From a bacterium (lineage in GTDB: Bacteria; Patescibacteriota; Minisyncoccia; Phycocordibacterales; UBA9973), in contig JBAXSP010000004.1 of the NCBI GenBank assembly GCA_037130655.1, forward strand, positions 337 to 64,336: 64,000 nt of DNA, read 5' to 3'. Below the pieces are notes generated by a model. The model did not search any database, was not told where the DNA came from, and saw only the letters and a program-made list of their open reading frames with translations. Position 1 is the first letter of the stretch; every line of letters begins with the position of its first letter. Positions 1,647-63,127 of the stretch are shown piece after piece. The position numbers and the translations under genes are program-made.

Positions 1647-4600
1647 TTATTTCTTTTCTTCTTTTGGTTTTCCTCCACTTTCTATTTTTTCTTTATTTTC
1701 TTTGATTTTTGTTTTGTTTGAATCAATTTGAGTAGTCAATGTCTCTTTTTGTCGAGAGAAATTTTTTCTATCAGATGAAACGCTTCCCAAGAATTTCATT
1801 CGAGAACGAATCTTATCGAGTTCTTTCTTATCTACTGTTCCGCTCTGTTCTTTTTGATACAATTCGTCTCGTAATGTTTCATTTTGTTCGAAGACATAAT
1901 CTTCTACTGTTGTAGTAATCATATCTTGCAACTGTTTCTCTTTTCGAATAATATTCTTAGCCATTTCTTCAGCTGATTTCTTTGCCTTCTTCTTCTCGTC
2001 ATCACTCAGTTCCGTGAAATTAGCAGCTTGTTTATCAGCATCAGTCATGTCAACAAACTTACCAGTTGCTGCGTCTCGTTTTTTACCAAGCTTCTTATTG
2101 ATTTCATCCTCTTCAGTAAGAATTGCTTTCTTTTCATCAACAATTTTCTTATATTCTTCATTGTTTGCTTTGAGGTCATCGATTTTATCTTTCAACGGCT
2201 TAAGTTCTGCGTTATTTTCTATCAAACCAGTATTTCTTGCCAATGCGCTTTCTGCTGCAGTAACTCTTCTTTCATTCTCTTTATTGGCGCGTTCAAGATC
2301 CTCATTTTGATTTTGAAGCTTAACTGCATCAGCCTTGGCTTTTTCACTTTGTTTTGCGTATTTCTCTTTGATATCTTTGTTAATACGATTATCAGCAACA
2401 GCACTTCCTAAAAGAGAAGCACCTACTACAGCACCGACACCTGTACCAACCAAAGCACTTCCTGCAACCGAGCCTGAAAAACGACCTGCACCACCAACAA
2501 CACCCGCAGCAACAACCCCTTGTGTAGCCCTGTCATTATCTTTTGACCTACCAATAAAGCTGGTTGCCTTATTGAGCACAGATCCGGTAACAGAGAAGTC
2601 GTCAAATCTTGTATCGAGACGTGCCAATAGTTTTTCAAGGCGATCATCTTCGACTTTTTTACGCATAGCTTTGATATCTTCTGGTTTTGCATCTTTACCA
2701 AGCTCTTCAAATCGCTTGCCATATTTTGCTTCGTGTTTTTTCTTGAATTCTTCTTCAAATTTCTTTTTCTCGTCGTCTGTTTTTGCTGCATAATTTGCTG
2801 CAATTTTTTCTTTTTCAATTTTATCTTTATATATTGTTTCGTACTTTTCAACCTGATTATCATGCATTTCTTTAAACTGAGTATCTGTGACATGTGATAT
2901 TTTTGATTGTCGCTCGATTTCTTTTTCCTTCTTTTCTTGTCGTTCTTTTTGATATGTAGCAAATCCTGTTTTATTTGCATCAAGACCAACGGCCCCCATA
3001 GAAAGACCGGCACCTCCAAGAAATGCATTTGTAGTTTTACCACTCATATCGAAACCTGATACCTTACTAAAACCACCTGACACCGCATTAAATCCTTTTG
3101 TATTTCTTACATCAAAAGAACCGTCTTTTGCTTTGTCAAAAGTTTTGAGACCAAGTTTTGCAAATTTACCACTAATACCACCTTTTGCTTCGGCCGCAGC
3201 CAATCGTTCAGCAAGCTTTGCTCCTGTCCCACTTGTTGCTGCAGCACCAAGTGTATTTCTTCCTATTAAAGCAGCTCCGCCAGTTGCCGCACCGAGAGCA
3301 ACACCACCAACAACACCTGCGGCTTGTGTAATTTTCCCTGCCAACTCCTTTGCAACTGATCCAGCCAAACTTACCGCAGTATCTTTTGCTTTTCCAAGCA
3401 TCACGATAATGAATATAAATGGCATGACAACTCCTAATATCCAAGAAGTGTTTGATTCGCCTGACTCCTTCAAAAGAGGTGCTCCGATTTGCACAAACAA
3501 CAATATCAAATACATAAACACCATAAAAATAGGTGCCATCATTGCTATCTTAAATGTCTCTTTCAACCAAGAATCAAATGAAATACCTCCCATTTTCCAC
3601 CCTTTTGGAAGAATATTAGAAACAAAAGCAAGTGGAGAAGTGATTGTCTGCACCCAAAGACCAATGACTCGTCCAACAAATAATATTCCTATCTTGAAGA
3701 AAATACCTGCACCAATCACATTAAGAATAACTGCGCAGATAGTAATGAGAATAAATGTAGTATTATCCAAATCACCACCACTACTAGCCTCGTTTCTTCC
3801 TGCATTTTTTGAATTTACATCATCATAAAGCTTGTCTTTTCCTTCGAGTACAATACGCTGTGGGTCGAAACCAGAAACAATCACCTCCGACATTCCATGA
3901 GCAACAGTTCGCTCGCCAGTACTTCTATCTATTTTGGTTATAGCGATTGTGTCTGAGTTATAAAACAACCTGGCCGTCACGTTCCCTGTATCAATAATAA
4001 TTCGAGTCAAGAAAAAACTAAAATTAATCGTAACCGCAGCAATAATAATCGGTATAATCATTTTTTTCCAATCAACACCACCTGTCTCAAGTAATGTACC
4101 GATTGCGATGTACATCATCATTACAATAAAAGCTATATTACAAAGATCACGCACAAGTGCCCACGCCTTTTGAACAAACTGCGATGAATTATCATAAGAA
4201 GAACTTTGAATCGAGTAGTCGAAAGTAAAATCAAACAACATACCCGCAACCATAAAGAGCCAAGATGTTGGTACATATAAAACATAATAGAGTAACTGCG
4301 CAAAACAACCTGACATCGAAATACCATCTGAAACACCCAGCCAGCATCTTGGCATACTTTCATCCGGATCAAGTGCACCTGCTTCACCTGACTGCTCAAG
4401 TGTGCCATTTGTCAATCCAATAGTTCCTTCTGCTTTATAATTAGCACCCCCAACCTGATCACTACCACCAGTCTTAAAAGTCATATTCTTAATAACATCA
4501 CCTCCTAGACCTTTATTAATTAATACTAATTGGGCAACATAATCAGTACCACTACCCAATCCCTCTATACGAAAAGATCCTTTTGTTTCAATATTTTGTG

Positions 4601-5135
4601 TATTAATTTGGATAGGAAATAAGAAAGCATTATTTGGAATAGAGCTGACACCCGAAACAGGAGTTGTTCCTTTATATACAACAATAAAAGCAGCATTATC
4701 TATTTTAATGTTTCTAATGGATTCATAATAAACAGCGCGAACCTTGGGAACGTCTTGCCCTGCGACTGTTTCTTTTTGAGAATAACCTATTTCAAGATCA
4801 TTCTTGCTATCAAAATAAACAGCGGATCCATATACCTGTACTTTATATGTACCATTGGCTTCTGCTGTTGGTTTATTGTTCCCAACATAATCATCTGCAT
4901 AATAATCAATTGTTTTCACTAAATTATTTGTTGAAACAAGGTCATATTCTATTTCATGTGTAGAATACCCTGTGTAATTACCTTTTGTACGAATATAACT
5001 TTTACTAAAATCATCGGACAAAGTAGATGCTTTTGCTATATTGGTAGAAAATCCTTGCAAAGAAAAAACAAGCGGAGAAAAAGCCAAGACTCCGAGAATC
5101 AAACTTATTACGCTCTTGGAAAAAAAGCGATACAT
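1647..5135 (-). CDS. Large polytopic membrane protein, possibly VirB6/TrbL-like, with Gly/Ala-rich and KE-rich coiled-coil C-terminal region
   Basis: 1162 aa. N-terminal signal/TM (MYRFFSKSVISLILGVLAFSPLVFS). The central region has multiple hydrophobic helices (e.g. LLYYVLYVPTSWLFMVAGMLFDFTF, IAFIVMMMYIAIGTLL, IIPIIIAAVTINFSFFLTRIIID). It sits in a cluster with PrgI and the VirB4-like gene. Confidence 0.4.
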   Translation of the reverse strand: MYRFFSKSVISLILGVLAFSPLVFSLQGFSTNIAKASTLSDDFSKSYIRTKGNYTGYSTHEIEYDLVSTNNLVKTIDYYADDYVGNNKPTAEANGTYKVQVYGSAVYFDSKNDLEIGYSQKETVAGQDVPKVRAVYYESIRNIKIDNAAFIVVYKGTTPVSGVSSIPNNAFLFPIQINTQNIETKGSFRIEGLGSGTDYVAQLVLINKGLGGDVIKNMTFKTGGSDQVGGANYKAEGTIGLTNGTLEQSGEAGALDPDESMPRCWLGVSDGISMSGCFAQLLYYVLYVPTSWLFMVAGMLFDFTFDYSIQSSSYDNSSQFVQKAWALVRDLCNIAFIVMMMYIAIGTLLETGGVDWKKMIIPIIIAAVTINFSFFLTRIIIDTGNVTARLFYNSDTIAITKIDRSTGERTVAHGMSEVIVSGFDPQRIVLEGKDKLYDDVNSKNAGRNEASSGGDLDNTTFILITICAVILNVIGAGIFFKIGILFVGRVIGLWVQTITSPLAFVSNILPKGWKMGGISFDSWLKETFKIAMMAPIFMVFMYLILLFVQIGAPLLKESGESNTSWILGVVMPFIFIIVMLGKAKDTAVSLAGSVAKELAGKITQAAGVVGGVALGAATGGAALIGRNTLGAAATSGTGAKLAERLAAAEAKGGISGKFAKLGLKTFDKAKDGSFDVRNTKGFNAVSGGFSKVSGFDMSGKTTNAFLGGAGLSMGAVGLDANKTGFATYQKERQEKKEKEIERQSKISHVTDTQFKEMHDNQVEKYETIYKDKIEKEKIAANYAAKTDDEKKKFEEEFKKKHEAKYGKRFEELGKDAKPEDIKAMRKKVEDDRLEKLLARLDTRFDDFSVTGSVLNKATSFIGRSKDNDRATQGVVAAGVVGGAGRFSGSVAGSALVGTGVGAVVGASLLGSAVADNRINKDIKEKYAKQSEKAKADAVKLQNQNEDLERANKENERRVTAAESALARNTGLIENNAELKPLKDKIDDLKANNEEYKKIVDEKKAILTEEDEINKKLGKKRDAATGKFVDMTDADKQAANFTELSDDEKKKAKKSAEEMAKNIIRKEKQLQDMITTTVEDYVFEQNETLRDELYQKEQSGTVDKKELDKIRSRMKFLGSVSSDRKNFSRQKETLTTQIDSNKTKIKENKEKIESGGKPKEEKK

Positions 5136-5157
5136 ATATACACAAAGTATATCACTG

Positions 5158-5258
5158 TCAGTTGATAGTTGTTAGTTGATAGTTGTGAGAAAAACAAAAG
5201 CGTGATGGACGAAGTCCATCACGCTTTTGTTTTTTATTAGTCACTAGTTATTGAACAT
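5158..5258. repeat. Heptamer-array/terminator composite element, copy 2 (variant left arm AGTTGAT/AGTTGTT)
   Basis: Left arm tcagttgatagttgttagttgatagttgtgag. Hairpin aaaagcgtgatggacgaagtccatcacgctttt. Right arm attagtcactagttattgaacatt. Confidence 0.6.
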
Positions 5259-5263
5259 TATAC

Positions 5264-7540
5264 TTATTGTCCAATTCCAAAGATTTTCTCAAATGTACTA
5301 CTGAAACCACATTTGTTTTTTGTATCATACAGTGGCTGTTGGCTTTGTTTAACACTATCATAATATGTCTTTCCTGTGTCATATGCTAAACCTAAATTAT
5401 ATCCATCTGACCAACTAATATCTGATTTACAATTAAATCCAATTCCATCACCTACTACACCTTGACCGTAGTCAAATGCTGCAAACGATCGCTGAACAGC
5501 ATCTTGTATGCCGGCCCACGGAACACCACCCTTTTGTTCTTTGTCTTCTTTTCCAAATGAATAAAATACATTCGTATTTGCATCTGCACGGGGATTGTTA
5601 TAATTAGTATACGAAACACTACCGTCTTTATTATACCGAGGAACATTAATCTTATAACCACCAACATCATCATCATCATCATACAAAGACTCACTTAAAT
5701 GTGTCCACGATAAAATCAATTCCTGTCCTTGTTTATGATTATCCCAACGACAATCTTGTGTATCCCCTGAGGCACTTGCTTGATCTGTGTCAAAAATAAT
5801 CGAACTATCAACATAAAATGGTGCGATTCGACGTTTTGGACTCTTTGATGGATCTGGCACCAAATCTCCATTTGCAATATCTTGTGTTTGCTCCTGACAG
5901 ATTGAGGTTAGTTCTTTGACGTAATTTTTTGAATTTTGTAATTCTTCAATATCATGACCGATACCTGCGATTGCTTCTGGTGTACGAATCTGTGGTAGTA
6001 ATCTGAAAAATTGTCTGAGCAACTTGTCATATTCCGCTTGTTCATCAGTTGTCAAAATAATTGGTGTATTTTGTCCTGAAGTACCATTTGAACAAGTATT
6101 TCCTGTAGTGTCTGGAACATAAGTATCAGTGTCGAAGAAATTATCCTTGTCGAGGTCTGGGCAGTATATTTTTTGCAAATTTAACGGAAGATTATCACAC
6201 AAATCAGTTCCTGTATTTGTTGTTTGTATTTGAATACTAGTATTTGCACGAAGGGTTTTACCTGCTTTAGTAACACAAGAGATAGCATAGCGTGAATCTT
6301 TGTTTTTTGGAGTTACTCCAAAATTTTGTACTGGAGTGGTGTTATCAGGTACAGGTTTTGAGCCGATCCATGACGATGTATCTACACCCCCAGTAGAAAC
6401 AGTTGCTCCTGCTCCGACTCCTTCACAAGAAGCAAATGCTGTGCCTGCAGGTGAAAACCAAAAGAGTGTACTTGTACCGTCTGGTTGCACCACTTCCGGT
6501 GAAGCAATCAAAGATAATTCTTTTGAAGCATCAGCATTTGGATTACATTCTGGCATCAAAACAGAAACATTTGCAGGATATATACTACAATCTTTTGTTG
6601 TATTCCCTGATGTTCCATCGTCAAGAATAAGTGCCACTTGAGCAACAACATATTCTTTTGGTGGAGTAGTGTCTGCTGTTTCTACCTGACTCTCTGCAGT
6701 ACCAAAACCAATAGTACTTGCAGTTTCAGTTTTTGCAGTAGAACTTAGTTGTGCTTGTACTGGTTTTTCACAGGTGAGCACATAGATAATTTCTTTGTCA
6801 CCATATGGCATTTGAGTTTTTTTGGTTTGCGGTTTTGTAGGTACTGGCTGTTTACCATTCCAGTTATATAACTTACTTTGTACATACGCAGTTGCGTTGA
6901 CACCTTTTGATTTCAAATCTTTTTGCTGATAGACCCCACCCGCATATGAACCAACGCAGCTTGCAAAATCCATTTTTGTTGGAGATGACCAAGAGATAGT
7001 GAGTTGATCTTTTGTTTTCGCCGTATCAGTTGAAGCGGTCACTACCAAATCTTTGGTTGCAATCGTATCTCTTTTGATTAACTCTTTGAGTGCATCCTCA
7101 TTGTTTGAGGGAATAGCAGAAGGTCCATTGTCTGAATTTGTATCTAATACATCTTGCAATAATTCAGTAGACGTATCTTTGCTATCAATAACACCATCTT
7201 TGTTGGTATCAATCACTGCATCTTTGTTGTTGATTACACCATCACCATTGGTATCTTTGGTTGGAATAAGTGAACCTTTTAAAGGAATAGTACTTCCGGT
7301 GGTTGATGATGCACTTGTGTTGTTTGTAGCATCTTCTGCTGTACCATTTTTGATGGTATCTTTTTTCTTTGGCAAAAGATTCCCAAGATCGACAAAAAAT
7401 TGCGCGCGTTGATTTGCGTCTTTGGTGATAGGATTTGCAACTTGCTTACTACCAATCAGTATCGCCAAAATTGCAACGACTAACACAACAAAAATAAGTG
7501 CTACTATTTTTATTCTTTTTTTCTTTTCTTCATTCATCAT
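5264..7540 (-). CDS. Secreted or membrane-anchored hypothetical protein with Asp-rich calcium-binding-like repeats (DTNGDGVINNKD / DTNKDGVIDSKD)
   Basis: 758 aa. N-terminal TM (IVALIFVVLVVAILAILIG), Thr/Ser-rich linkers, and tandem D-x-D-G-D-G-like repeats typical of thrombospondin type 3 or dockerin-like Ca-binding loops. Confidence 0.5.
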   Translation of the reverse strand: MMNEEKKKRIKIVALIFVVLVVAILAILIGSKQVANPITKDANQRAQFFVDLGNLLPKKKDTIKNGTAEDATNNTSASSTTGSTIPLKGSLIPTKDTNGDGVINNKDAVIDTNKDGVIDSKDTSTELLQDVLDTNSDNGPSAIPSNNEDALKELIKRDTIATKDLVVTASTDTAKTKDQLTISWSSPTKMDFASCVGSYAGGVYQQKDLKSKGVNATAYVQSKLYNWNGKQPVPTKPQTKKTQMPYGDKEIIYVLTCEKPVQAQLSSTAKTETASTIGFGTAESQVETADTTPPKEYVVAQVALILDDGTSGNTTKDCSIYPANVSVLMPECNPNADASKELSLIASPEVVQPDGTSTLFWFSPAGTAFASCEGVGAGATVSTGGVDTSSWIGSKPVPDNTTPVQNFGVTPKNKDSRYAISCVTKAGKTLRANTSIQIQTTNTGTDLCDNLPLNLQKIYCPDLDKDNFFDTDTYVPDTTGNTCSNGTSGQNTPIILTTDEQAEYDKLLRQFFRLLPQIRTPEAIAGIGHDIEELQNSKNYVKELTSICQEQTQDIANGDLVPDPSKSPKRRIAPFYVDSSIIFDTDQASASGDTQDCRWDNHKQGQELILSWTHLSESLYDDDDDVGGYKINVPRYNKDGSVSYTNYNNPRADANTNVFYSFGKEDKEQKGGVPWAGIQDAVQRSFAAFDYGQGVVGDGIGFNCKSDISWSDGYNLGLAYDTGKTYYDSVKQSQQPLYDTKNKCGFSSTFEKIFGIGQ

Positions 7541-7545
7541 ATATA

Positions 7546-9651
7546 TTAATGTACACCTACATTACCTGTTGTTCCATTGGCCGACCCAGTAGTGGTACCA
7601 TTTGTTGTATTGTTGGTTGTGTTATTACTTGTTGCATTCCCACCAATTCCTGTTGCAGTACCTGCGCCAGTTGTTGTACCTCCAGGACCATATGTTGCAC
7701 CACCGCCGACACTTGTCGTACCGTTGGCATTACCAGTATTTCCAAAAATTCCACCAAATGGTTCTATTGTGCCGAGACAAGCCGGATCAATTGGAAGTGC
7801 ATTAATATTATCTACTTGTACTTTTTGCCCTGGGCCATATTTTAGTTTTGCTTCATCCGCCAAACGTTTGTATACCCTATTCATCAAATTATCCATTTTC
7901 TTTTGAACTGCAAAAACTTGATTGGTTGTTGCCATAACATCGATAGCTTCGTTTTGATTGTCTAAAATTTGCTGTGAATATTGTGGCCACAGTTCAAGTT
8001 CTTTGTTGGCAGTTCTTGCTATCGGCATGACGTTTGGATTTGTCACATATGTGTTGCTGATGAAGTTGTTGTACAGATCAACTGAATCTCGATATGAACC
8101 ACGGAGTACAGAGAGGATGCCGTTAATGATTGTCTGAGCATCAATTGATTTCCAAAAACTCTGCCAGCCACTAACAGTAACACTTTTGATTAGAGCATTA
8201 TGCAACCCATCAAGACGACTATTGATAACAGCATCAGCATTATCTTCCCATCCAGGACGAGGACCAGGAATACAATAGGAAAGATCGTGCAGTGGGTACC
8301 CACACCAATCTGTTGTCATCTCATTCAAATTATCACTATATTTAGCCAAACTAGATTCATAGTTTACATTCCCTGAACCTGCACTTGCTTTGTTTAATTG
8401 CTTGATTCGACGAGCAACTGACGGAGCATCTTTGTTTGCACTATACTGATCGAGTGTTTTTTGGTCTCCAATATAACTGAGCTGTGTAATCAACACGTCA
8501 GGCAGTATTTCATGATCAAACACCCGTGGGTCGATTGGTTTGTTTGGGGCAACTTTCAACCAATCAGATGCATCACCATTCGTAAAACCACCACTAATAC
8601 CTGAGACGGAATTATTAAGCCCAGGACCACCTGATGCATAAGAATCGGTAGTTTTTCCTTTTGAAAGACTTGAAAGACCTCGTTTGATCAATTGATCGGT
8701 CAATGCAGTGAAGATTTTTGAAACAGACGTATTTACATCATTAGCGATTTCAAGTTGGCGACCCGTTGTCCCAAGTGCTTGATTGATTTGATTTTGCACC
8801 ACAGAACCAGGTGTGACCACCTCCCATCGATTACAAGTAACTTTTGGATCTGCTTTGTGTGCTTCGACATACCCTGCTGGGTCTACACATTTTTTGACTG
8901 ACAAAAAGTTTGGTTGTGACAATTCTGCTTGTACTGCGCCAACTTTTTGATTGATAAGCTTATCTGATTCTTCAGCAAGATTGATACTCACCCCTAGTGG
9001 ATTATTTCTTTCACTGAGTGTCACACTTTTCCAAGCAGCCCAACCACCACCTTCACTAAAATCTTTTTTGAACACTTTTGGATCAGGACCAGTATATTTG
9101 AAATTATCGAGCGGACTCAAAGATACTTTTCTGTCAGTAATCAATTGCCGAAGTGCAGATTTTGCATACGGAGAAAATGATGGGTCGTCTTCATATTTTG
9201 CAAGTAATCCATTTTTGAGACCATTGATTGATTCATTTTCAATACTCGCAAAAAAAGATTCACGATTTCGAATATACAGCGGATTTCCATCAAATCCACT
9301 ATTAATCCAGTTAACAATACTTTCAGTAAGTTGTTGTAATACTACACGAGCAAGAGATACAGCAATCGCATCAATACAAGCTTTTGTATTGTTTGCTTTT
9401 GCTTGTTGTTTGTCATCAACCTTAACAGCGGCAGTACCTAGTGTCGATCCAGCTTTTTCTTTTGCTTTTTCTTTAAGACCTGAAATAATTCCTTTCCCAA
9501 GCAAACAACCCGCCAATGAAGATGCTGTAGCCGAACCGAGCGAAGCACCAAGTGAAGCACCGTCGAGCGCTTCAGCTTTTGGAGGAATAGCAACAATCAA
9601 AAAACTAACGAGCAGTATTGAGGTGATTGTTTTTTTGAAAAAAGTAAGCAT
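7546..9651 (-). CDS. Secreted hypothetical protein with C-terminal Gly/Thr/Asn-rich low-complexity tail
   Basis: 701 aa with an N-terminal signal peptide (MLTFFKKTITSILLVSFLIVAIPPKAEA). The C-terminal ~70 aa are GTTTGAGTATG-type low complexity. Confidence 0.5.
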   Translation of the reverse strand: MLTFFKKTITSILLVSFLIVAIPPKAEALDGASLGASLGSATASSLAGCLLGKGIISGLKEKAKEKAGSTLGTAAVKVDDKQQAKANNTKACIDAIAVSLARVVLQQLTESIVNWINSGFDGNPLYIRNRESFFASIENESINGLKNGLLAKYEDDPSFSPYAKSALRQLITDRKVSLSPLDNFKYTGPDPKVFKKDFSEGGGWAAWKSVTLSERNNPLGVSINLAEESDKLINQKVGAVQAELSQPNFLSVKKCVDPAGYVEAHKADPKVTCNRWEVVTPGSVVQNQINQALGTTGRQLEIANDVNTSVSKIFTALTDQLIKRGLSSLSKGKTTDSYASGGPGLNNSVSGISGGFTNGDASDWLKVAPNKPIDPRVFDHEILPDVLITQLSYIGDQKTLDQYSANKDAPSVARRIKQLNKASAGSGNVNYESSLAKYSDNLNEMTTDWCGYPLHDLSYCIPGPRPGWEDNADAVINSRLDGLHNALIKSVTVSGWQSFWKSIDAQTIINGILSVLRGSYRDSVDLYNNFISNTYVTNPNVMPIARTANKELELWPQYSQQILDNQNEAIDVMATTNQVFAVQKKMDNLMNRVYKRLADEAKLKYGPGQKVQVDNINALPIDPACLGTIEPFGGIFGNTGNANGTTSVGGGATYGPGGTTTGAGTATGIGGNATSNNTTNNTTNGTTTGSANGTTGNVGVH

Positions 9652-9653
9652 AC

Positions 9654-10541
9654 TTAGTTGTTTTTTGGATTAAGTGCAAATAACTGACTACCTATTTCAG
9701 TAAATTCATCGTTATACTTTTTGTACTGAATAATACCGGGCATCGCTACAGTTGCATTATCATACAAAAGTGATAATTTTTTAAGTGCAATACCTACTTT
9801 GATAGAACTATTTGCAAAACGACGGTGTAATTCTACTACATCAGCAGGTACTTTCATTTTTGCAAGCGCACCACCGAGCCCTATATACGCATTACTTACA
9901 TCATCCAAATCTTTTATTCCGTTACGATCTTCATTTTGAAGTGTATACGCAAGTATACCAACCTCATTACCAGCGCCTTGTTTTTCATAAGTAGTGACAA
10001 TTGATTCTAATTCTTTCAAATATTTCTTCTTGTTTTCTACTGTCGAAGGAACACTGCTAATTTTTTCTTTTGAAATAGCGTCAGGCAAAGTATCGTCAGA
10101 AGTAATCTTGTCAGCCAATGTTATTGCGAGCACACTAGCTGATTCATCATTGAGCGCACCTGAGTCTTTGAGTACCATCAAAGAAGAAAAGAATTCTTGT
10201 GCGATTTTATCTGTTTCATTGGTGTCACCACCGCCATTTTGTGAGAGTGATTCACGTTTTTTAGATATATAAGTCAAATCATCAACACCATTGAAAGTGG
10301 CAACTTTTTTTGGATCAGTCCCCCAAAGTGATTCTTCCCAGTCAGCAACACCATCACCATCAGTATCGATAAACACCGCTTCTTTGAGTGTAGCGTTTTG
10401 AATTTTACCTTTTCTTCCGATAGAACCAACGAGACTAGACCAATTAACATATTTAACAAGCACCACAAGCAATAAAATCCCAATAATTATAAGGATTTTT
10501 TTTGAAAATTGTTTACTTGGAAGATATTGTTGAAATGACAT
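9654..10541 (-). CDS. Membrane-anchored hypothetical protein with DTDGDGVADWEE calcium-binding-like motif
   Basis: 295 aa. N-terminal TM (ILIIIGILLLVVLV). Its start overlaps the stop of the upstream gene, which implies an operon. Confidence 0.5.
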   Translation of the reverse strand: MSFQQYLPSKQFSKKILIIIGILLLVVLVKYVNWSSLVGSIGRKGKIQNATLKEAVFIDTDGDGVADWEESLWGTDPKKVATFNGVDDLTYISKKRESLSQNGGGDTNETDKIAQEFFSSLMVLKDSGALNDESASVLAITLADKITSDDTLPDAISKEKISSVPSTVENKKKYLKELESIVTTYEKQGAGNEVGILAYTLQNEDRNGIKDLDDVSNAYIGLGGALAKMKVPADVVELHRRFANSSIKVGIALKKLSLLYDNATVAMPGIIQYKKYNDEFTEIGSQLFALNPKNN

Positions 10542-10544
10542 ATA

Positions 10545-10913
10545 TTATCTGCTTACATTAAATCTTTTTGGTGCAATTGACCATGAAGGGACAAATGCGC
10601 CTGTTTCCGTGTTGTAACATGTATTGTAATCAATACTGTATCTACCTAAAATTTGTTGTCCTGCCCGAAGTGTTTTACTTGATTCAGAAACAAAAAATGG
10701 TAAGATTATAAATTTTGAACCGATCGGAGCAATGGTCATTGGTCCGTATTGAGCACCGCACGCAACCTGACTTTCAGCAGTGTTATTGAGTTGTCGAATT
10801 TTCCCACCAAAATTAAACGATGGACCGATAGCAAATGTATTTGTAGCAAAAGAAAATCCGAGCGCAACAAATACACTCAAAAATAATAACGAACGAATTT
10901 TAGAGTGACTCAT
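10545..10913 (-). CDS. Small secreted hypothetical protein
   Basis: 122 aa with a signal peptide (LLFLSVFVALGFSFATNTFA). Its start abuts the ksgA stop. Confidence 0.45.
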   Translation of the reverse strand: MSHSKIRSLLFLSVFVALGFSFATNTFAIGPSFNFGGKIRQLNNTAESQVACGAQYGPMTIAPIGSKFIILPFFVSESSKTLRAGQQILGRYSIDYNTCYNTETGAFVPSWSIAPKRFNVSR

Positions 10914-11830
10914 TACTTCAGTATACTAGAGCGCGACAAAGCCAACCACTCTTTTATGTGCAAATCTTCGGCGCGGATGTTTGAGGGAATTTTCGATTCC
11001 TCAAACATCCGCGCAATCACCTCACTTTGTATTCCACCTTCCTTCAAATTATGCGCCAATGTCTTTCGTTTGTGACCAAAACCAAGATGAATTAATTCAA
11101 AAAAAGCTTTTTCTTCTTTGGTATTCTTAAAATTACTACGAGAAATGTTTGAAATCGACAAAATAGCCGAATCAACCTTTGGTGCTGGCACAAATGAGCC
11201 TGCTTTCACAACATCGACGAGTTTTGGTTCACCAAAAGCTTTGATTGAAATAGAAAGAAGTGAACCTTTCTCGTCACGAGCAACCGCACGCTCAGCAACT
11301 TCTTTTTGCACCAAAACAACGATTTTACTTGGCTGAACCACTTCTTCGAGGAATTTCCGGACGATTGCACCTGTTATATAGTAGGGAATGTTTGCGATTA
11401 ATTTGTATGTGATTACGTCCGAAGTTTTCTCGATGGTCTGTTTTTTCAAAGGTCCTGCGGAGGCGGGTAGCCGAGCACGAGCCGATTTTTCACCAGAAAA
11501 ATACGGCGTACCTTTGAAAAAGCAGGACCATTCTAACATTGCGTTCTTAATTGGAATTTCTAATATATCTCCCTCAATAAGTAATAGTTGTTTATTTTCA
11601 AGCTCTTTCGAAAATTTTTCACGTAACAAAGGTATCAATTCACGGTCTTTTTCAATTGCCACGACTTTTGCACCAGTTTTGAGTAAACTTTCAGTCAAAA
11701 TACCGGTTCCAGGACCGATTTCAAGCACCGTATCAGTTTTTTTGAGCTCTCCGGCTTCGACAATCTGTCTGACCGCCTTTTCTGACTTCAAAAAATTCTG
11801 CCCGAGGGATTTTTTAGCTTTGTATTCCAT
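10913..11830 (-). CDS. rsmA: 16S rRNA (adenine1518-N6/adenine1519-N6)-dimethyltransferase RsmA/KsgA, carrying a ~40-aa in-frame insertion
   Basis: Diagnostic N-terminal KKSLGQNFL motif, SAM-binding LEIGPGTGILT, and NIPYYIT (the E. coli NLPYNIS equivalent). About 37-40 extra residues (AMLEWSCFFKGTPYFSGEKSARARLPASAGPLKKQTIEKTSDVIT) lie between the EGDIL and NIPY motifs. Confidence 0.9.
   Translation of the reverse strand: MEYKAKKSLGQNFLKSEKAVRQIVEAGELKKTDTVLEIGPGTGILTESLLKTGAKVVAIEKDRELIPLLREKFSKELENKQLLLIEGDILEIPIKNAMLEWSCFFKGTPYFSGEKSARARLPASAGPLKKQTIEKTSDVITYKLIANIPYYITGAIVRKFLEEVVQPSKIVVLVQKEVAERAVARDEKGSLLSISIKAFGEPKLVDVVKAGSFVPAPKVDSAILSISNISRSNFKNTKEEKAFFELIHLGFGHKRKTLAHNLKEGGIQSEVIARMFEESKIPSNIRAEDLHIKEWLALSRSSILK
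11434..11530. mobile_element. MITE-like palindromic element (TTTTTCACCAGAAAAA-core family, copy A) inserted in frame inside ksgA
   Basis: Terminal inverted repeats tggtctgttttttcaaaggtcc / ggtacctttgaaaaagcaggacca flank a core gcggaggcgggtagccgagcacgagccgaTTTTTCACCAGAAAAAta. The core is shared with the copies at 43604, 51863 and 62320. Confidence 0.55.
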
Positions 11831-11928
11831 GGAGCAAGTATATCAGTATTTCAGTAGTCAGAATATAGAAATAAAAAAAGGGCTTCGCAAGCGAAGCCCT
11901 TAAGGGTACAAAAGAAAAAAGAAAAGGA

Positions 11929-14760: not shown

Positions 14761-14790
14761 TGTATTACTTTATCACACGTGCGTGAAAAT

Positions 14791-14822
14791 AAAAAAATAA
14801 CACCTTGCAGTGTTATTTTTTT
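14791..14822. terminator. Bidirectional terminator between the UvrD-like and 982-aa genes
   Basis: aaaaaaataacaccttgcagtgttattttttt. Confidence 0.6.
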
Positions 14823-14830
14823 ATTTTCAA

Positions 14831-42236: not shown

Positions 42237-43334
42237 ATGAAATTCGAAGCCTCAATAGAAAAAATAAAAGAAGCGATTGTAAACACTGATCGAATTGCGG
42301 GCAAGAATTTATCATTACCAGTTCTTGGAAGTATCTTAATTATCGCATCAGATAAAAAGCTCAAATTGCGTTCTACAAACCTTAGTATCGGCATAGAGGT
42401 AGATGTACCCGCAAAAGTTGAAAAAGATGGCGTAGTGGCAGTACGTGCCGAAATACTGGCAGGTTTCTTCTCTAATCTAGTCGGTGGAGGAATGGTTTCT
42501 TTTGAACAAGTTGAAAACACTATTGTTCTTAGTACAAAACAAGTCACTTCTCGTATCAAAACAATTCCACACGAAGATTTTCCAACGATTCCAGTGATTG
42601 ATGGTGAAGGAAATAAGATTAATGCTCAAAAATTCAACGAAGGATTACGTGCAGTGTATTATTCAGCAGCTGTCTCTGATATCAAGCCTGAAATCGCAAG
42701 TATTTATGTGTATAAAGATGGTGAAAAGTTGGTATTCGTTGCAACAGACTCATTCCGTCTTTCTGAAAAGAAGATTCAGCAAAGTGTTGAAAATTTTGAA
42801 TCAATGTTGATTCCATGGAAAAATGTTGTTGAAATAATGCGGTTATTGGACAGTGTACAAGGAGATTTTGTTTTGACACACACAAAGACGCAGATTGCTA
42901 TCACTGACAAAGAACAAGGATTATACCTGACTTCTCGGGTGATCGACGGAAATTTCCCAGATTATCGACTTATTTTTCCAAAAGAAGTATTGATCGAAGT
43001 GAATATTTTGAAACAAGAATTTGTGCAGTCATTGAAATTGGCAACAATTTTTTCTGATAAATTCAATCAGATCACATTGAATATCAATGCGGATACAAAC
43101 ACTTGTTCTGTTGCTTCAAAAAACAACGAAACTGGTGAGCAAGATATTGTGGTTCCATGTAAAGTAACTGGCGGAAGTATCACCGCGAGTTTCAACTACA
43201 AACACTTTATGGATTGCTTTTCTTCAGTTGGTGGTGACACGGTCAAACTATCGTTTACTCAACCACAAAAACCAGTGCTGGTGAGCGGGACAGATAATAG
43301 TTTTACTTATTTGATAATGCCACTCAACCGCTAA
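42237..43334 (+). CDS. dnaN: DNA polymerase III beta sliding clamp
   Basis: 365 aa immediately downstream of dnaA/oriC, with the three-domain architecture. Typical N-terminal MKFEASIEKIKEAI... Confidence 0.9.
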   Translation: MKFEASIEKIKEAIVNTDRIAGKNLSLPVLGSILIIASDKKLKLRSTNLSIGIEVDVPAKVEKDGVVAVRAEILAGFFSNLVGGGMVSFEQVENTIVLSTKQVTSRIKTIPHEDFPTIPVIDGEGNKINAQKFNEGLRAVYYSAAVSDIKPEIASIYVYKDGEKLVFVATDSFRLSEKKIQQSVENFESMLIPWKNVVEIMRLLDSVQGDFVLTHTKTQIAITDKEQGLYLTSRVIDGNFPDYRLIFPKEVLIEVNILKQEFVQSLKLATIFSDKFNQITLNINADTNTCSVASKNNETGEQDIVVPCKVTGGSITASFNYKHFMDCFSSVGGDTVKLSFTQPQKPVLVSGTDNSFTYLIMPLNR

Positions 43335-43603: not shown

Positions 43604-43697
43604 AGTTGTAATTTTTTAAGAACACAGATATTTTTCTGGTGAAAAATTCCTTTGCTCGCCTACCCGGCTGCGCAAGTTTCTTAAAAAATTACAACTC
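43604..43697. mobile_element. MITE-like element, TTTTTCACCAGAAAAA-core family (copy B)
   Basis: 19-bp TIR agttgtaattttttaagaa / ttcttaaaaaattacaact. The core (rc) is gcgcagccgggtaggcgagcaaaggaaTTTTTCACCAGAAAAAta. Confidence 0.55.
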
Positions 43698-44131: not shown

Positions 44132-45127
44132 ATGGAAATTCTAGATAGCATGCAAAAAGAACAGCACACAGACGGAAGACTCGACCAAACACTTCGCCCA
44201 AATACGTGGGATGAATATATTGGACAAGAACACATCAAAGAAAATGTGCGAATTTTGCTTGAAGCTGCAAAAGAACGTGAACACCATGCAGAGCATTTAC
44301 TTTTTTATGGGCCACCAGGACTCGGAAAAACAACACTCGCTCATTTGATTGCGAAACATACCGGTAGAAATATTCGTTCAACATCAGGGCCAGCGATTGA
44401 AAAAGTTGGTGACCTTGCATCGATTCTTACAAACCTAACAGCAGGAGATATTTTGTTTATTGATGAGATTCATCGGTTGAATAAAATGATTGAAGAAGTT
44501 TTGTATCCGGCAATGGAGTCTGGGGTGCTTGATATTATTATCGGAAAAGGGCCATCTGCTCGAACAATCCAACTTGAATTACCACCATTTACCTTGATTG
44601 CTGCAACGACTCGTGTGGCATCACTTTCTTCTCCGCTCCGTTCACGTTTTTCCGGTGGAACATTTCGATTGGAATTTTATACGAATGAAGAATTGAAAAA
44701 AATTATTGCTCGTTCGGCGAAGTTGCTTGGTATTGAGTTGTCTGATACTGCGCTAAATGAAATTGCGATTCGTAGTCGCAGTACTCCGAGAACTGCCAAT
44801 CATTTTCTCAAGCGTGCACGAGATTTTGCTCAAGTACACAAAAAAGAATTGGATGACAAAACTGTCCGTGAAGCATTGGCATTGCTCGGTATTGATGAAC
44901 TAGGTTTGACTCAAACAGATCGAAAAATATTGGAAGTAATGATTGAAAAATTCAATGGTGGGCCAGTTGGTTTGAACACAATCTCTGCTGCAACAGGAGA
45001 GGAAGAAGCAACAGTCGAAGAAGTCATCGAGCCGTACCTATTACAACTTGGTTTGATTGAACGGACACCAAGAGGAAGAACTGTGACTAAAAAAGCATAT
45101 ACCCATCTTGGTTTTGATTTGAAATAA
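44132..45127 (+). CDS. ruvB: Holliday junction branch-migration helicase RuvB
   Basis: LRPNTWDEYIGQEH...LLFYGPPGLGKTTLA...FIDEIHR plus the C-terminal winged-helix. Confidence 0.95.
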   Translation: MEILDSMQKEQHTDGRLDQTLRPNTWDEYIGQEHIKENVRILLEAAKEREHHAEHLLFYGPPGLGKTTLAHLIAKHTGRNIRSTSGPAIEKVGDLASILTNLTAGDILFIDEIHRLNKMIEEVLYPAMESGVLDIIIGKGPSARTIQLELPPFTLIAATTRVASLSSPLRSRFSGGTFRLEFYTNEELKKIIARSAKLLGIELSDTALNEIAIRSRSTPRTANHFLKRARDFAQVHKKELDDKTVREALALLGIDELGLTQTDRKILEVMIEKFNGGPVGLNTISAATGEEEATVEEVIEPYLLQLGLIERTPRGRTVTKKAYTHLGFDLK

Positions 45128-50006: not shown

Positions 50007-51710
50007 CTAATCTTCATCGAAATCTACAACCTCCACTGCTTCCTCATATGTTGTCACACCATTCAAGATTTTCACCACTGCGTCTTCTTTCATATCAAGA
50101 ATGTGTTGTGTTTCAGATGCTTTTTTGATTTCTCGTTCACTTGGGTTTTTGTTTACGATATCTTCAATTGATTGGTCTGTGAGTATTGCTTCGAACACAC
50201 CGATTCGTCCTTTGTATCCAGTTCCGCTACATTTTTCACAACCAACCGCTTGTTTGACTTTCATATCCATATCAGCTGATACATTATATGAAGCCATATC
50301 TTTTCCTTCTGCAATCGCCTGTGTGATAATCGCGCTGAATATGTTCTTTTCATTTTCGTTTGCGTCACGATCTGTCGCACAGTATTTACAAACTTTTCTG
50401 ATCAACCGTTGTGCTACTGAAATAGTGAGAGCAGAAGTGAGGATTTTTGGATTGATACCAAGGTCAATCAAGCGGGGAATAACACCTGCGGCATTGTTGG
50501 TGTGGAGTGTTGAGAACACCAAGTGACCAGTAAGTGCTGCGTTGATTGCAATTGTTGCTGTGTCTTTGTCTCGGATTTCTCCCACCATGATTACGTCAGG
50601 GTCTTGTCTTAGTGCTGCACGAAGTCCTTCAGGGAAACCGTAGCCTTTGTCGATTTCAGTTTGAGTTTGAGTGATACCTGCGAGGTGATATTCAATCGGG
50701 TCTTCAATAGTAAGAATTTTTAACTCAGGATCATAGATGCGACGAAGGAATGAATAGAGGGTGGTTGTTTTTCCAGATCCTGTTGGTCCGGTGATCAACA
50801 TCAATCCATTTGGTTTTTTGATTTCGTGATCCAGAATCTTAAAGAGTTTTGGTTCGATTCCCAGGTCTTCGAATTTTACTTTCGTTGCTTTTGGGTTGAG
50901 TAGACGCATAACAATTCCTTCGCCGTATGCAGATGGAATGATTGATGTACGAATACCAATTTCATCTCCGCTAATAAAAATACTAAAACGTCCATCCTGT
51001 GCTTGGTCTGTTTGAGTAAGTTTCAATCCTGAGATCAATTTGATACGAGAGTCGATCATTCTGAACTTTGCTTCATCAAAGAATGCTACATCTTGCAACA
51101 CTCCGTCGAGACGATACCGTAAACGAATTCGTTCATGCTCTGGTTCGATGTGAATATCAGACGCATCAATCGAAATTGCTCCAGCGAGAATAATTTCAAG
51201 CATGCGAGAAGTTTTCTTTTGAGAGCCGTCAGAAATAATTTGTTCAATGATTTTTCTAATATCATCAATTGTTTTAATCTGTGTCCCGAGTGCAAGGAGA
51301 GTGTCTCCGGTGATGTCGATACCACCTTCTCGAGAAACAGTGGTGTTTGAAAGTTCGCGATAGCGTTCCCAAACTTTTGTGAGACTGGCGATTGATGCCA
51401 TATAGATATGAGGAACATATCCTTTTTTGATGAGGTTTGCTGTCAGTAATGCAACATCGGTGTGAGCAGGAGAGTGTAGTGCGATGTGCAGATTGTTCCC
51501 GGCTAGTTTGAACGGAGCAACTTCCATATCATGTGCGTCTTTTTCGTCGAAGGCTCGCAATGCTTCGTTTTCAATAACCACTCCAGCAAGGTTGATATAT
51601 GGAATATTGTATTTTTCGGTCGCCAACATTTCTACCAAACCCTCTTCTTCTTGTTTTCGTAGTTCGTCAACGCGTTTGTTTTGTGATTTGTCATCAAAAG
51701 AAATACTCAT
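50007..51710 (-). CDS. Type IV pilus assembly / type II secretion ATPase (PilB/GspE family)
   Basis: Walker A LITGPTGSGKTTTL, Asp and His boxes, and a C-terminal tetra-Cys motif (CKYCATD...CEKCSGTGYKGR). Confidence 0.9.
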   Translation of the reverse strand: MSISFDDKSQNKRVDELRKQEEEGLVEMLATEKYNIPYINLAGVVIENEALRAFDEKDAHDMEVAPFKLAGNNLHIALHSPAHTDVALLTANLIKKGYVPHIYMASIASLTKVWERYRELSNTTVSREGGIDITGDTLLALGTQIKTIDDIRKIIEQIISDGSQKKTSRMLEIILAGAISIDASDIHIEPEHERIRLRYRLDGVLQDVAFFDEAKFRMIDSRIKLISGLKLTQTDQAQDGRFSIFISGDEIGIRTSIIPSAYGEGIVMRLLNPKATKVKFEDLGIEPKLFKILDHEIKKPNGLMLITGPTGSGKTTTLYSFLRRIYDPELKILTIEDPIEYHLAGITQTQTEIDKGYGFPEGLRAALRQDPDVIMVGEIRDKDTATIAINAALTGHLVFSTLHTNNAAGVIPRLIDLGINPKILTSALTISVAQRLIRKVCKYCATDRDANENEKNIFSAIITQAIAEGKDMASYNVSADMDMKVKQAVGCEKCSGTGYKGRIGVFEAILTDQSIEDIVNKNPSEREIKKASETQHILDMKEDAVVKILNGVTTYEEAVEVVDFDED

Positions 51711-51772: not shown

Positions 51773-51862
51773 ATTTAAATTATAAAAAATAAATAATTAT
51801 TTTTTATAAAAATATATAAACTATTATTTAAAATAATTGCAATTTTTTTTCATGGAATGAAG

Positions 51863-51955
51863 GTGTGTTTTTCAGTAGACTCTGCGCAGACTGACGAGTC
51901 GAGCAAAGTAATTTTTCACCAGAAAAATATACGTGTCTACTGAAAAACAGCACCT
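51863..51955. mobile_element. MITE-like element, TTTTTCACCAGAAAAA-core family (copy C), flanked by an 8-bp direct duplication
   Basis: TIR gtgtgtttttcagtagac / gtctactgaaaaacagcac. Core gcgcagactgacgagtcgagcaaagtaaTTTTTCACCAGAAAAAta. Flanking direct repeats gaatgaag at 51855-51862 and 51956-51963. Confidence 0.6.
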
Positions 51956-52022: not shown

Positions 52023-53342
52023 TTGAAACAGTACATTTTAAACATCAAAAAAGTCCTTTTTACGGCAATCATTGTTTTGGTTGTGTCAGCAAAAGGCTAC
52101 ACAAAAAATTCTAACGATACTACTTGGCATCATTTGCCATATAGTAAAAATCCAACCACTCAAAAAACCGGAGCAGAAATTGCGGAGGGGATTGAGAATG
52201 GAACACTTGAACTGAACATGAGTATTGATGAGTTTGTAATTCAAAAAACAAACATTATCAACATTTATTGCAAACGCGACAAATGGAAAGATGCTCAAGG
52301 AAATCTGGTGGCCCCATACAAAGCCTCGAGGCAATTCATTGCTTCAATGTATCGGAACGCAAAACTGCAAACCGCAAGTTGGCAGTCCGACCAAGCATTG
52401 GTTTTTAGATTAACAACCGGAAGTATTGGTTCTGGGAAAAAAGAGAAAGTAGTCATAAAATATTTTGACTACTGGAACAGAAATCCTTACCAAAACGAAG
52501 GAATGTTTACAATTAGCCCAAGTGCTTTGTCCGATGTTGTTGGTAATTATCCAGATATTAATTTGGGTAGCAACCAGTGTTTGAATGATATTTTTATCAA
52601 ACAAATACAACAGCAACCAATCGCTCAGACTCCTGCTCCTTGCACAACATGTAATCAGCAGGTACAGCAACAGGTGTACCAGCAACCACAACAACAGCCA
52701 TGCAACAATTGCCAACAAGTGCAATGTCAGGGTGGATGTAACACGTGGAGCGGTATTCCTGTTAGAGTTCCGGCGATCTACACAGATCAGTACACAAGTC
52801 CGTGGTGGAACTTCAATGGCTATCCTCCAAACGTTAACTGTAACTACGGTTACGGAAACATGGGGTATGCACAACAAGGTTGTGGGTATTGCGGTGTTGT
52901 TGGTTGTAATGGTGGTTGTTATGGAAGAGGGAGAAATCCTTATCCGTATATGATTGCAGGACAATTAATCAGTGCTGGAACAATGCTCGGTTTGGCTTAT
53001 TTTAGCCAACCGCAACAAACCATTTTGGTTCAAAACTACAATACAACGACTTCAAATGGTGGAACGTCTCAGACGTGGACACCGACCAATAACGGGAGCG
53101 GTATTGTTGTTACCCCTGGGGGGAGCACATCAGCACTTAATTGGGGCACTGGAAACAGTAACAGTGGTGGAACAAACCAAACAAACACAGGTCTTAACTG
53201 GGGAACCGGAAACAGTTTCGGTGGTGGAACAAACCAAACAAACACGAACTTTAACACAGGAACTGGAAACAGTTTTAATGGAGGGGGTTCGTCAAATTGG
53301 GGAGGAACATCTTATGTTATTCCTGCTCAATGGTTGCGTTAA
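52023..53342 (+). CDS. Secreted Cys- and Gln/Asn/Gly-rich hypothetical protein with internal tandem repeats
   Basis: 439 aa with a signal peptide. A QQ/C-rich middle region, and the C-terminus has ~19-aa tandem repeats (NWGTGNS.GGTNQTNT). Confidence 0.5.
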   Translation: MKQYILNIKKVLFTAIIVLVVSAKGYTKNSNDTTWHHLPYSKNPTTQKTGAEIAEGIENGTLELNMSIDEFVIQKTNIINIYCKRDKWKDAQGNLVAPYKASRQFIASMYRNAKLQTASWQSDQALVFRLTTGSIGSGKKEKVVIKYFDYWNRNPYQNEGMFTISPSALSDVVGNYPDINLGSNQCLNDIFIKQIQQQPIAQTPAPCTTCNQQVQQQVYQQPQQQPCNNCQQVQCQGGCNTWSGIPVRVPAIYTDQYTSPWWNFNGYPPNVNCNYGYGNMGYAQQGCGYCGVVGCNGGCYGRGRNPYPYMIAGQLISAGTMLGLAYFSQPQQTILVQNYNTTTSNGGTSQTWTPTNNGSGIVVTPGGSTSALNWGTGNSNSGGTNQTNTGLNWGTGNSFGGGTNQTNTNFNTGTGNSFNGGGSSNWGGTSYVIPAQWLR

Positions 53343-62192: not shown

Positions 62193-62460
62193 ACAGATAA
62201 ATTATACAGGAATCGATCACAGATTACTAAAGCTATTTGTTTCGGTGGGAATCCCTCCTTACAGGGGCAGTAAACTTACAGTTTCTGTACACCTTTTGGA
62301 TATTTTTTCATAGGAATCGATCACAAGTATTTTTCACCAGAAAAATCTCGCGACCCCGCCTCGCCTATTTTTCGGGTGAAAAATTAGGGCTCCGGCTTTC
62401 GATTCCTACACGCAAAGCAAAATTGTTTGCTTCGCTCGAGGGGACACAAAAATAAAAACT
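62193..62460. repeat. Repeat-rich region next to tRNA-Lys: a 14-bp direct repeat pair around an 86-bp insert, a double TTTTTCACCAGAAAAA / TTTTTCGGGTGAAAAA palindrome (MITE-family copy D), and an inverted, interrupted copy of the tRNA-Lys 3' end
   Basis: aggaatcgatcaca at 62204-62217 and 62304-62317. 62323-62385 tttttcaccagaaaaatctcgcgaccccgcctcgcctatttttcgggtgaaaaa. 62397-62445 ggctttcgattcctac[acgcaaagcaaaattgtttgcttcgct]cgaggggac matches the tRNA-Lys T-loop-to-acceptor sequence on the opposite strand. Confidence 0.5.
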
Positions 62461-62487
62461 GCACAAATTGTGCAGTTTTTATTTTTG

Positions 62488-62560
62488 TCCCCTCGGTAGG
62501 AATCGAACCTACGACCATCTCCTTAAAAGGGAGCTGCTCTACCGACTGAGCTACGAGGGG
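62488..62560 (-). tRNA. tRNA-Lys (anticodon TTT)
   Basis: Perfect acceptor CCCCTCG/CGAGGGG, D-arm GCTCAGTCGGTAGAGC, anticodon loop CTTTTAA, T-arm TAGGTTCGATTCCTA. An unusual C at position 1. Confidence 0.7.
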
Positions 62561-63115: not shown

Positions 63116-63127
63116 TCCTATTCCGCA

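Follow-up and report, generated by a model that had tools for sequence, protein, structure and literature searches.

Why should the rRNA methyltransferase KsgA of one bacterium carry 39 residues more than that of its closest relative, and where did the DNA that encodes them come from? We asked this of ksgA/rsmA in a 64,000-nucleotide stretch of contig JBAXSP010000004.1 (assembly GCA_037130655.1; hereafter the window, to which all coordinates given without a locus label refer) from a member of the Patescibacteria, or Candidate Phyla Radiation (CPR), a huge, mostly uncultured bacterial branch with tiny genomes. An earlier note had proposed that a mobile palindromic element inserted into this gene at 11434-11530 without breaking the frame. 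The repeat family and the preserved frame were upheld, and mobility is the part of that proposal argued from presence/absence differences between relatives, our one line of evidence that the element has spread. We conclude, with a probability of about 0.72, that the extra residues derive from a single copy of a palindromic element, non-coding and multi-copy, which is widespread in CPR and appears to have spread among them, and that the insert is most likely translated. The gene and the insert are as follows:

10913-11830, minus strand: ksgA/rsmA coding sequence, 305 amino acids; residues ~101-133 encoded by the element; net gain of 39 amino acids over the closest orthologue
11434-11530, plus strand (the structured strand, antisense to ksgA): element copy 1, a 97-nt imperfect palindrome; 75.1 bits, E 8.9e-20 with the covariance model R1; absent in L001, the DNA of the closest orthologue

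An extra segment in KsgA

The 305-aa product of this open reading frame (ORF) matched Pfam RrnaAD (PF00398) with an E value of 1.9e-51 (175 bits), in agreement with the KsgA hallmarks and the extra peptide that had been noted before. LEIGPGTG and NIPYY are both present and fall in columns that are invariant over 120 homologues, so the protein has the S-adenosylmethionine (SAM)-binding GxGxG motif and the N-(L/I)-P-Y motif IV of KsgA/RsmA. A search for homologues over 5.8 billion protein sequences returned an identical protein and one close relative (P0002, 266 aa), with all others ~50-60% identical. P0002 is 90% identical in aligned columns and lacks exactly 39 residues at the insert site, and its DNA lacks 117 nt (39 codons) there. 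The alignment to Bacillus subtilis KsgA covers residues 4-99 and 135-300 only, skipping the insert, and the spacing from the invariant D88 to N147 is 58 residues in the window KsgA vs 20 residues in 76 of the 120 homologues; the claim of an extra segment relative to orthologues was thus correct. Against the insert-free orthologue, ksgA has a dN/dS of 0.08 at a dS of 0.66, and the amino-acid differences between the two concentrate close to the insert. The insert is lineage-specific, as anticipated, though its limits do not coincide exactly with those of the element, which encodes ~33 of the 39 extra residues, the remainder being local divergence of the loop. Together, these comparisons show that one copy of the element came into ksgA once this lineage had parted from its closest sequenced relative. 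As the net gain in length is divisible by three and there is no stop in the frame used, ksgA stays open.

An insert of this kind in a metagenome-assembled source could be an assembly chimera, as repeats can mis-join contigs, or the loop could have grown by local duplication or slippage. However, a Logan assembly contig of SRR12676975, the product of a second, independent assembler, is identical over 3,918 bp with the insert included, which argues against an assembler artefact. The insert is moreover in frame, has contiguous ksgA flanks and carries its own divergent sequence (~70% identity to other copies), and slippage is excluded because the insert scores as a full family member. We regard an origin of either kind as barely plausible.

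Anatomy of the element and its other copies in the window

The DNA at 11434-11530 folds into a stable structure on both strands, at -47.8 kcal/mol on the plus strand (z -6.3, against shuffles) and -42.9 kcal/mol on the minus strand (z -5.3). Its parts, read along the plus strand, are a long outer stem (P1), two hairpins (P2 and P3) and the junction strands (J) between them:

11434-11455, plus strand: 5' arm of stem P1, TGGTCTGTTTTTTCAAAGGTCC; pairs with 11508-11530; homologous columns covary over 70 copies
11456-11480, plus strand: J1/2, TGCGGAG; P2, GGC-GGGTA-GCC (11462-11472); J2/3, GAGCACGA
11481-11507, plus strand: P3 hairpin, GCCGATTTTTC-ACCA-GAAAAATACGGC; its central 18-19 nt are the sole exactly repeated part in the window
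11508-11530, plus strand: J3/1, GT, followed by the 3' arm of P1, ACCTTTGAAAAAGCAGGACCA

The terminal inverted repeats (TIRs) described in the earlier note are therefore real as complementary arms and not as a conserved TIR sequence, since the arms covary or differ between copies. A similar distinction applies to the core said to recur at three intergenic sites: the GC-rich 29-nt core occurs once in the window at up to 3 mismatches, and what recurs is the 18-19-nt P3 hairpin TTTTTCACCAGAAAAATA, found exactly at 43629-43647, 51911-51929 and 62329-62346, while 62366-62384 holds a near-copy in inverted form. If as many as 2 mismatches are allowed, this hairpin has 7 matches in the window vs 0.5 expected. 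Two of the three sites hold full members of the family, and the third holds only a degenerate composite:

43607-43697, minus strand: element copy 2; intergenic, with dnaN (42237-43334) and ruvB (44132-45127) as its neighbours, and antisense to the two; R1 84.6 bits, E 1.1e-22; flanks identified by Pfam
51860-51951, plus strand: element copy 3; intergenic between divergent genes; R1 90.4 bits, E 2e-24; flanks identified by Pfam
62318-62433, no strand assigned: degenerate composite of two inverted P3-like hairpins around a GC-rich centre; R1 partial matches of 21.6 and 21.0 bits

Copies 2 and 3 resemble the whole ksgA insert at ~70-73% identity in gapped alignment, and all three full copies share one fold, with a long outer P1, a small GC-rich P2, an A/U-rich P3 and conserved unpaired junction strands. 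Copy 3 has the gene of a PilB-like ATPase on one side (minus strand, 50007-51710) and an unknown ORF on the other (plus strand, 52023-53342). The composite adjoins tRNA-Lys (62487-62560) and contains TTTTTCACCAGAAAAA and the near-inverse TTTTTCGGGTGAAAAA inside an outer stem GGAATCGA/TCGATTCC; it may represent two collided or nested copies.

A structured repeat family of the Patescibacteria

We scanned one genome per prokaryotic species for the pattern CGAGCA-N(4-10)-TTTTTCACCAGAAAAA and recovered 51 loci, all of which shared the same architecture except two chance matches, and nearly all of which were labelled Patescibacteria/CPR (Paceibacteria, Nomurabacteria, Vogelbacteria, Taylorbacteria, Woesebacteria and 'Saccharibacteria' bins). 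The consensus runs from the P1 5' arm through cUUGCGCAG, P2, CGAGCA(C)GAG, P3 with an ANCA loop and GUG to the P1 3' arm. R1, built from 45 copies, recovered the three full copies and the degenerate composite of the window; over the window and 49 loci together it identified 70 copies, at a density of up to 6 per 8 kb. In an unbiased metagenomic set of 80 CPR recA loci (370 kb) it found 15 copies, which fell in 11 of the loci. No exact match came from viral contigs, and all 74 of their loose-pattern matches were rejected by R1. Rfam 15, whose test took in self-cleaving ribozymes, introns and transposon-associated RNAs, returned no match at the gathering score for the window and none at E<=10 for the ksgA copy, and permissive thresholds on L043 and the 51.9-kb copy gave chance-level matches only. 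The searchable literature on CPR with MITEs (short for miniature inverted-repeat transposable elements), palindromic elements or repeats yielded no description of the element. To judge from the literature searched, this is a previously undescribed repeat family, widespread in Patescibacteria and found in dozens of metagenome-assembled genomes (MAGs).

The element measures ~95-130 nt and consists of a long P1 capped by a three-way junction, the hairpins P2 and P3, and ~18 highly conserved unpaired junction bases. Motifs like TTGCGCAG, as well as CGAGCA, are invariant or nearly so in alignments of 45 and of 70 copies, and in both alignments every P2 pair shows compensatory changes. P3 covaries at its base, where one pair is read as GC in 27 copies, CG in 26, AU in 8 and UA in 3, with the loop keeping the pattern ANCA. 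Some copies (L016, L019:4201-4328, L031, L033, L009, L039 and L029) carry an extra ~40-nt hairpin within the P2 loop, and P2 is therefore an arm of variable length.

Covariation extends over the whole structure. In the 70-copy alignment, which was fitted to R1 and whose helices were identical in an independent MAFFT/RNAalifold run, 95.6% of cells are standard-paired vs 67.8% in column shuffles and 42-60% with slid partners, and compensatory double changes occur at 24 of 24 pairs. Departures from pairing favour one strand: G·U/U·G pairs number 50 vs 11 for A·C/C·A (p 5e-7), a p-value that is indicative only, as these counts treat related copies as independent, and purine-purine mismatches (mostly tandem G·A) number 43 vs 15 pyrimidine-pyrimidine. 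The plus strand is the more stable one in 64 of 70 copies. Elements occur in both orientations relative to genes, and mutational strand bias therefore cannot explain the mismatch asymmetry. Selection thus acts on the structure of one strand, which must matter as a single strand of fixed polarity, be it RNA or single-stranded DNA (ssDNA). Tandem G·A mismatches (UGAG/CGAA, GAGCGA/GAGCGA) are recurrent in the stems.

Such constraint raises the question of whether the hosts maintain the element as a cis-acting RNA with a role like that of REPs (repetitive extragenic palindromic sequences), for example as an mRNA stabiliser or a processing or protein-binding site, with the ksgA copy being accidental or co-opted. 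The junction bases are conserved phylum-wide, and the strand-specific structure includes G·U pairs as well as tandem G·A pairs. Compensatory changes distinguish copies within the L043 genome, and a compensatory C:G to U:A replacement in P2 separates the orthologous copies in L051 and L053. Some loci have a copy in almost all of their intergenic spacers, L043 with 6 of them in 8 kb. However, the orientation of the element relative to flanking genes is random, so that half the copies would be transcribed as the wrong strand, and no T run follows the stem. Copies also lie within coding regions in either orientation, close relatives vary in whether they have the element, and the distribution is patchy, as the recA loci illustrate. 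We consider a host-maintained RNA element possible, and on balance unlikely.

In-frame insertion and the fate of the host protein

Around 6 of the 70 copies lie inside ORFs, and 4 of those are Pfam-verified. Besides ksgA, these comprise a sense copy inside TsaD (L049) and two copies at the same loop of Dus in opposite orientations, antisense in L052 (2903-3997) and sense in L019 (4352-5482). Homology of TsaD and Dus to Protein Data Bank structures or Pfam breaks exactly at the element. All four verified copies are in frame and stop-free, in three frame/orientation combinations, and which peptide is encoded depends on the frame: KsgA has YFSGEK, Dus has NIFLVKN and TsaD has EIFHQKN. The element is generally depleted in stops and keeps 2.14 of 6 frames open vs 1.38±0.11 in dinucleotide shuffles.

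These frames also bear on whether the insert is taken out on the way to the mature protein, as an intron, an intein or a translational bypass, leaving KsgA no longer than its relatives. The ksgA mRNA would hold a very stable hairpin (the -42.9 kcal/mol minus-strand fold), and introns are known from the rRNA genes of CPR (PMC11665869). A spliced element, however, would not need to be in frame and stop-free in every verified copy; moreover, there was no Rfam intron or ribozyme match and no intein Pfam domain, and 33 aa is far below intein size. Removal of the insert is hard to credit on these grounds, and we continue with the reading that it is translated.

The AlphaFold model of the window KsgA, made with the 120-sequence alignment, has a predicted local distance difference test score (pLDDT) of 89 and a predicted template modelling score (pTM) of 0.85. 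Foldseek placed it closest to KsgA crystal and cryo-EM structures, with 6ift KsgA as the top match (E 8e-23, template modelling score 0.78), so both methods recover the two-domain KsgA fold. Residues ~107-140 have a pLDDT of 51-60 and no secondary structure; on the question raised in the earlier note of whether the insert forms a surface loop, the model thus gives a low-confidence loop. Mapped onto class I methyltransferase topology, the insert would lie between β3/motif III (…EGDIL) and β4/motif IV (NIPY), at the N-terminal end of β4, and its loop would occupy the face of the Rossmann sheet opposite the SAM/adenine cofactor pocket. Since the loop would face away from this pocket, the insert-bearing KsgA probably stays functional, with the insert most likely translated as a disordered surface loop. 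KsgA is universally conserved, yet it is non-essential in Escherichia coli, which qualifies the previous description of ksgA as an essential gene.

Palindromes also occur in the same loop of other CPR KsgA proteins. Three further ksgA genes (L055:215-1054, L056:854-1882 and L057:191-1075) contain long palindromes unrelated to the element, with fold z scores of -7.4, -7.7 and -4.8, respectively. One KsgA-loop palindrome in these CPR metagenome contigs, CGTCATTCCCGCG…CGCGGGAATGACG, encodes IPAKVGI…DSRLRGNDE, and another is a ~190-nt hairpin of -99 kcal/mol. The motif III-IV loop is insertion-tolerant in many CPR KsgAs and is a recurrent landing place for palindromes, and, to judge from the genes compared here, in-frame palindrome insertion seems common among CPR proteins.

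Downstream of ksgA in the window and in the same orientation lies a row of large ORFs (1647-10541, minus strand; 1162, 758, 701 and 295 aa). Apart from one weak TSP3 repeat none of them matches Pfam, and the tail of one is rich in Gly, Thr and Asn; their products are probably surface or secreted proteins specific to CPR.

Gain, loss and possible modes of movement

Most copies are intergenic and sit between complete housekeeping genes (dnaN/ruvB, recA, ftsK, ftsZ, nusA), in random orientation relative to their neighbours (20 sense, 21 antisense, 13 divergent and 6 convergent). The flanking genes were considered as split halves of one gene, an idea rejected on finding separate complete housekeeping genes. 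Relatives in the L043 lineage, at 94-96% amino-acid identity in recA, differ in both the presence and the orientation of the element, and their recA intergenic DNA is too diverged to define element ends or a prior hairpin. The PilB relatives of the window organism are at most 70% identical, too distant for an empty-site comparison.

Small, non-coding, multi-copy repeats with inverted-repeat ends invite comparison with classical MITEs, that is, deletion derivatives of an insertion sequence (IS) that are moved by the IS transposase via conserved TIRs and make target-site duplications (TSDs). The 51.9-kb copy is bounded by an 8-nt direct repeat, GAATGAAG, as such an origin would predict, though this is an isolated case: across 70 copies, flanking direct repeats follow the chance distribution, with no TSD of fixed length. 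Flush GAGCGA and AGCGAA repeats, taken up as candidate TSDs, were re-read as stem extensions that self-pair through tandem G·A. Furthermore, the arms are not conserved as TIRs would be; they covary or are unrelated even within one genome, and the conserved part is internal rather than terminal. No parent IS with matching ends was seen in ~430 kb of element-bearing loci plus 370 kb of recA loci (~800 kb), and a search for autonomous or split versions, with 5' and 3' halves around an ORF, gave chance matches only and one truncated copy in L022. A classical MITE is thus a very improbable account.

Movement of a REP- or REPIN-type element on ssDNA hairpins by a RAYT (REP-associated tyrosine transposase, a Y1 HUH enzyme) would be compatible with the strand-specific structure, the lack of TSDs and the occurrence in both orientations. 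Adjacent inverted pairs exist (L043 5495/5627, L014 1681/1815, L009 5704/5850), and Y1_Tnp genes are present in CPR loci (L002:510-1246, L008:3192-3950, L051:1223-1942). Those genes, however, are bracketed by 19-26-nt palindromes of their own, such as TGTAGACGTCGGACGTCTACA with a GTAG tag, and the element lies 1.7-3.2 kb away from them rather than flanking them; it is also 3-5 times the length of a REP and has a three-way junction. We therefore judge a RAYT-driven element improbable. The Y1_Tnp genes with their own short perfect palindromes resemble classical REP-RAYT systems in Patescibacteria, and the Y1_Tnp gene in L002 lies directly upstream of a KsgA with a loop insert.

Several of our observations weigh against a discrete mobile element having entered ksgA. 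Neither a transposase nor any other partner was found for the element, the Y1_Tnp genes having their own palindromes, and TSDs did not exceed chance. No clean empty site with flanks over 95% identical was obtained from which to delimit the mobile unit, and the loop around the ksgA insert has itself diverged, such that the element accounts for only ~33 of 39 extra residues. Copies within one genome can share an identical ~78-nt core within unrelated, perfectly complementary outer stems of 10-30 bp. At one orthologous intergenic site (L031:2150-2440 vs L033:1960-2250), the element is 97% identical but inverted, within flanks that are 78-82% identical. Finally, the covariation within genomes and the compensatory P2 change between L051 and L053 could mean that copies serve a host function.

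Identical cores in unrelated, perfectly complementary outer stems of up to ~40 bp were seen in L004/L005/L046, from one MAG, and in L010/L023/L044, from another, and the outer stems of L031 and L033 differ on both arms in a compensated manner. Given the unrelated outer stems and the inverted orthologous cores, simple cut-and-paste or copy-and-paste of a fixed unit is insufficient. Together with the opposite orientations in Dus and the differences among recA relatives, the pattern suits two models, in one of which the core inserts at hairpin apexes, while in the other it flips between its arms with gene conversion among copies.

We retain the reading that a copy of a mobile repeat entered ksgA, and propose the following course. 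The element normally resides between housekeeping genes in either orientation; it carries no gene and has neither a conserved terminal sequence nor a regular TSD. Its single-stranded form (RNA or ssDNA) would be recognised by a putative trans-acting factor. A single copy entered the ksgA loop between motifs III and IV with the frame kept, and insertions into genes would persist only if in frame, stop-free and in permissive loops. More speculatively, and with considerable doubt, the element could be a new class of mobile structured nucleic acid specific to Patescibacteria, the core of which would act single-stranded, home to or be rebuilt at hairpin apexes, and flip in place. Such homing and flipping would explain shared cores in unrelated stems, inverted 97%-identical orthologous cores and the lack of TSDs, and catalysis or the docking of a protein might take place at the junction bases that do not vary (UUGCGCAG / GAGCAGAG / GUG).

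Simple, AT-flanked, terminator-like hairpins are frequent between genes of the window (11868-11900, 14783-14826, 63076-63121 and many others), an example just upstream of ksgA being GGGCTTCGCAAGCGAAGCCC. R1 reports them as 'stem only' matches, and they bear on the idea of cores inserting into existing hairpins.

Relation to known repeats

Rickettsia palindromic elements (RPEs; Ogata et al. 2000, reviewed in PMC10969869) are in-frame insertions into housekeeping genes of reduced genomes, and IS-derived MITEs can likewise fuse in frame with host ORFs (PMC10969869). The analogy with RPEs drawn in the earlier note holds for behaviour, the same family being in frame in TsaD and two Dus genes as well as in KsgA. 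Like the ~100-150-bp multi-copy palindromes of Rickettsia, the element is a 97-nt palindrome in ksgA, with 3 full copies in 64 kb and at least 70 in CPR loci; it recurs in frame in unrelated housekeeping genes at fold-compatible positions (KsgA, TsaD and, twice, Dus); and it occurs in the reduced genomes of host-dependent organisms with no known transposase. The phylum differs, however, and the likeness shown here is one of behaviour; we file the element as RPE-like and not as a member. Whereas an RPE conserves the peptide it encodes, the conserved part here is a three-way-junction core with covarying stems, read in at least 3 frame/orientation combinations. Most copies of the CPR element are intergenic, and the family spans many CPR lineages, whereas RPEs occur in one genus.

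In genomic habit the closest systems are REPs, bacterial interspersed mosaic elements (BIMEs) and REPINs, which are likewise high-copy intergenic palindromes found in both orientations, sometimes as inverted pairs, with no TSD and with a strand-specific hairpin that implies a single-stranded form. REPs, however, are 20-40-nt simple hairpins that carry a GTAG/CGTC tag and flank a RAYT gene, in contrast to the ~95-130 nt and branched core of the CPR element, and the RAYT-like genes of CPR have separate REPs of their own. IS-derived MITEs (Correia/NEMIS, ERIC, Nezha, QMITE1) are also small, non-autonomous repeats, but the CPR element lacks conserved TIRs and a regular TSD, and the scanned loci held no parent IS. 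The attC sites of integrons resemble the element in being recognised as a folded single strand, in conserving structure while sequence varies, and in strand choice through extra-helical features. Their conserved boxes lie at the outer ends around a variable centre, though, a layout that the CPR element reverses, and no integrase or cassette context was seen around it. The element does not pass as an IS-derived MITE or as a REP associated with a RAYT, and it has no Rfam match. We therefore file it as an RPE-like structured repeat: it is a palindromic repeat with a three-way junction, occurs in Patescibacteria and can become part of proteins, with a behaviour closest to that of RPEs.

Implications

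The ksgA insert extends the writing of palindromic repeats into proteins, a Rickettsia phenomenon, to the Candidate Phyla Radiation, and suggests that some odd loop insertions in CPR proteins derive from repeat DNA. For the annotation of MAGs, the covariance model offers a usable means of recognising such inserts, which can be mistaken for frameshifts, chimeras or novel domains. Strong covariation, strand-specific structure, copy-specific stems and orientation flips in a family that is not in Rfam provide a handle on mobile or structured DNA and RNA in CPR.

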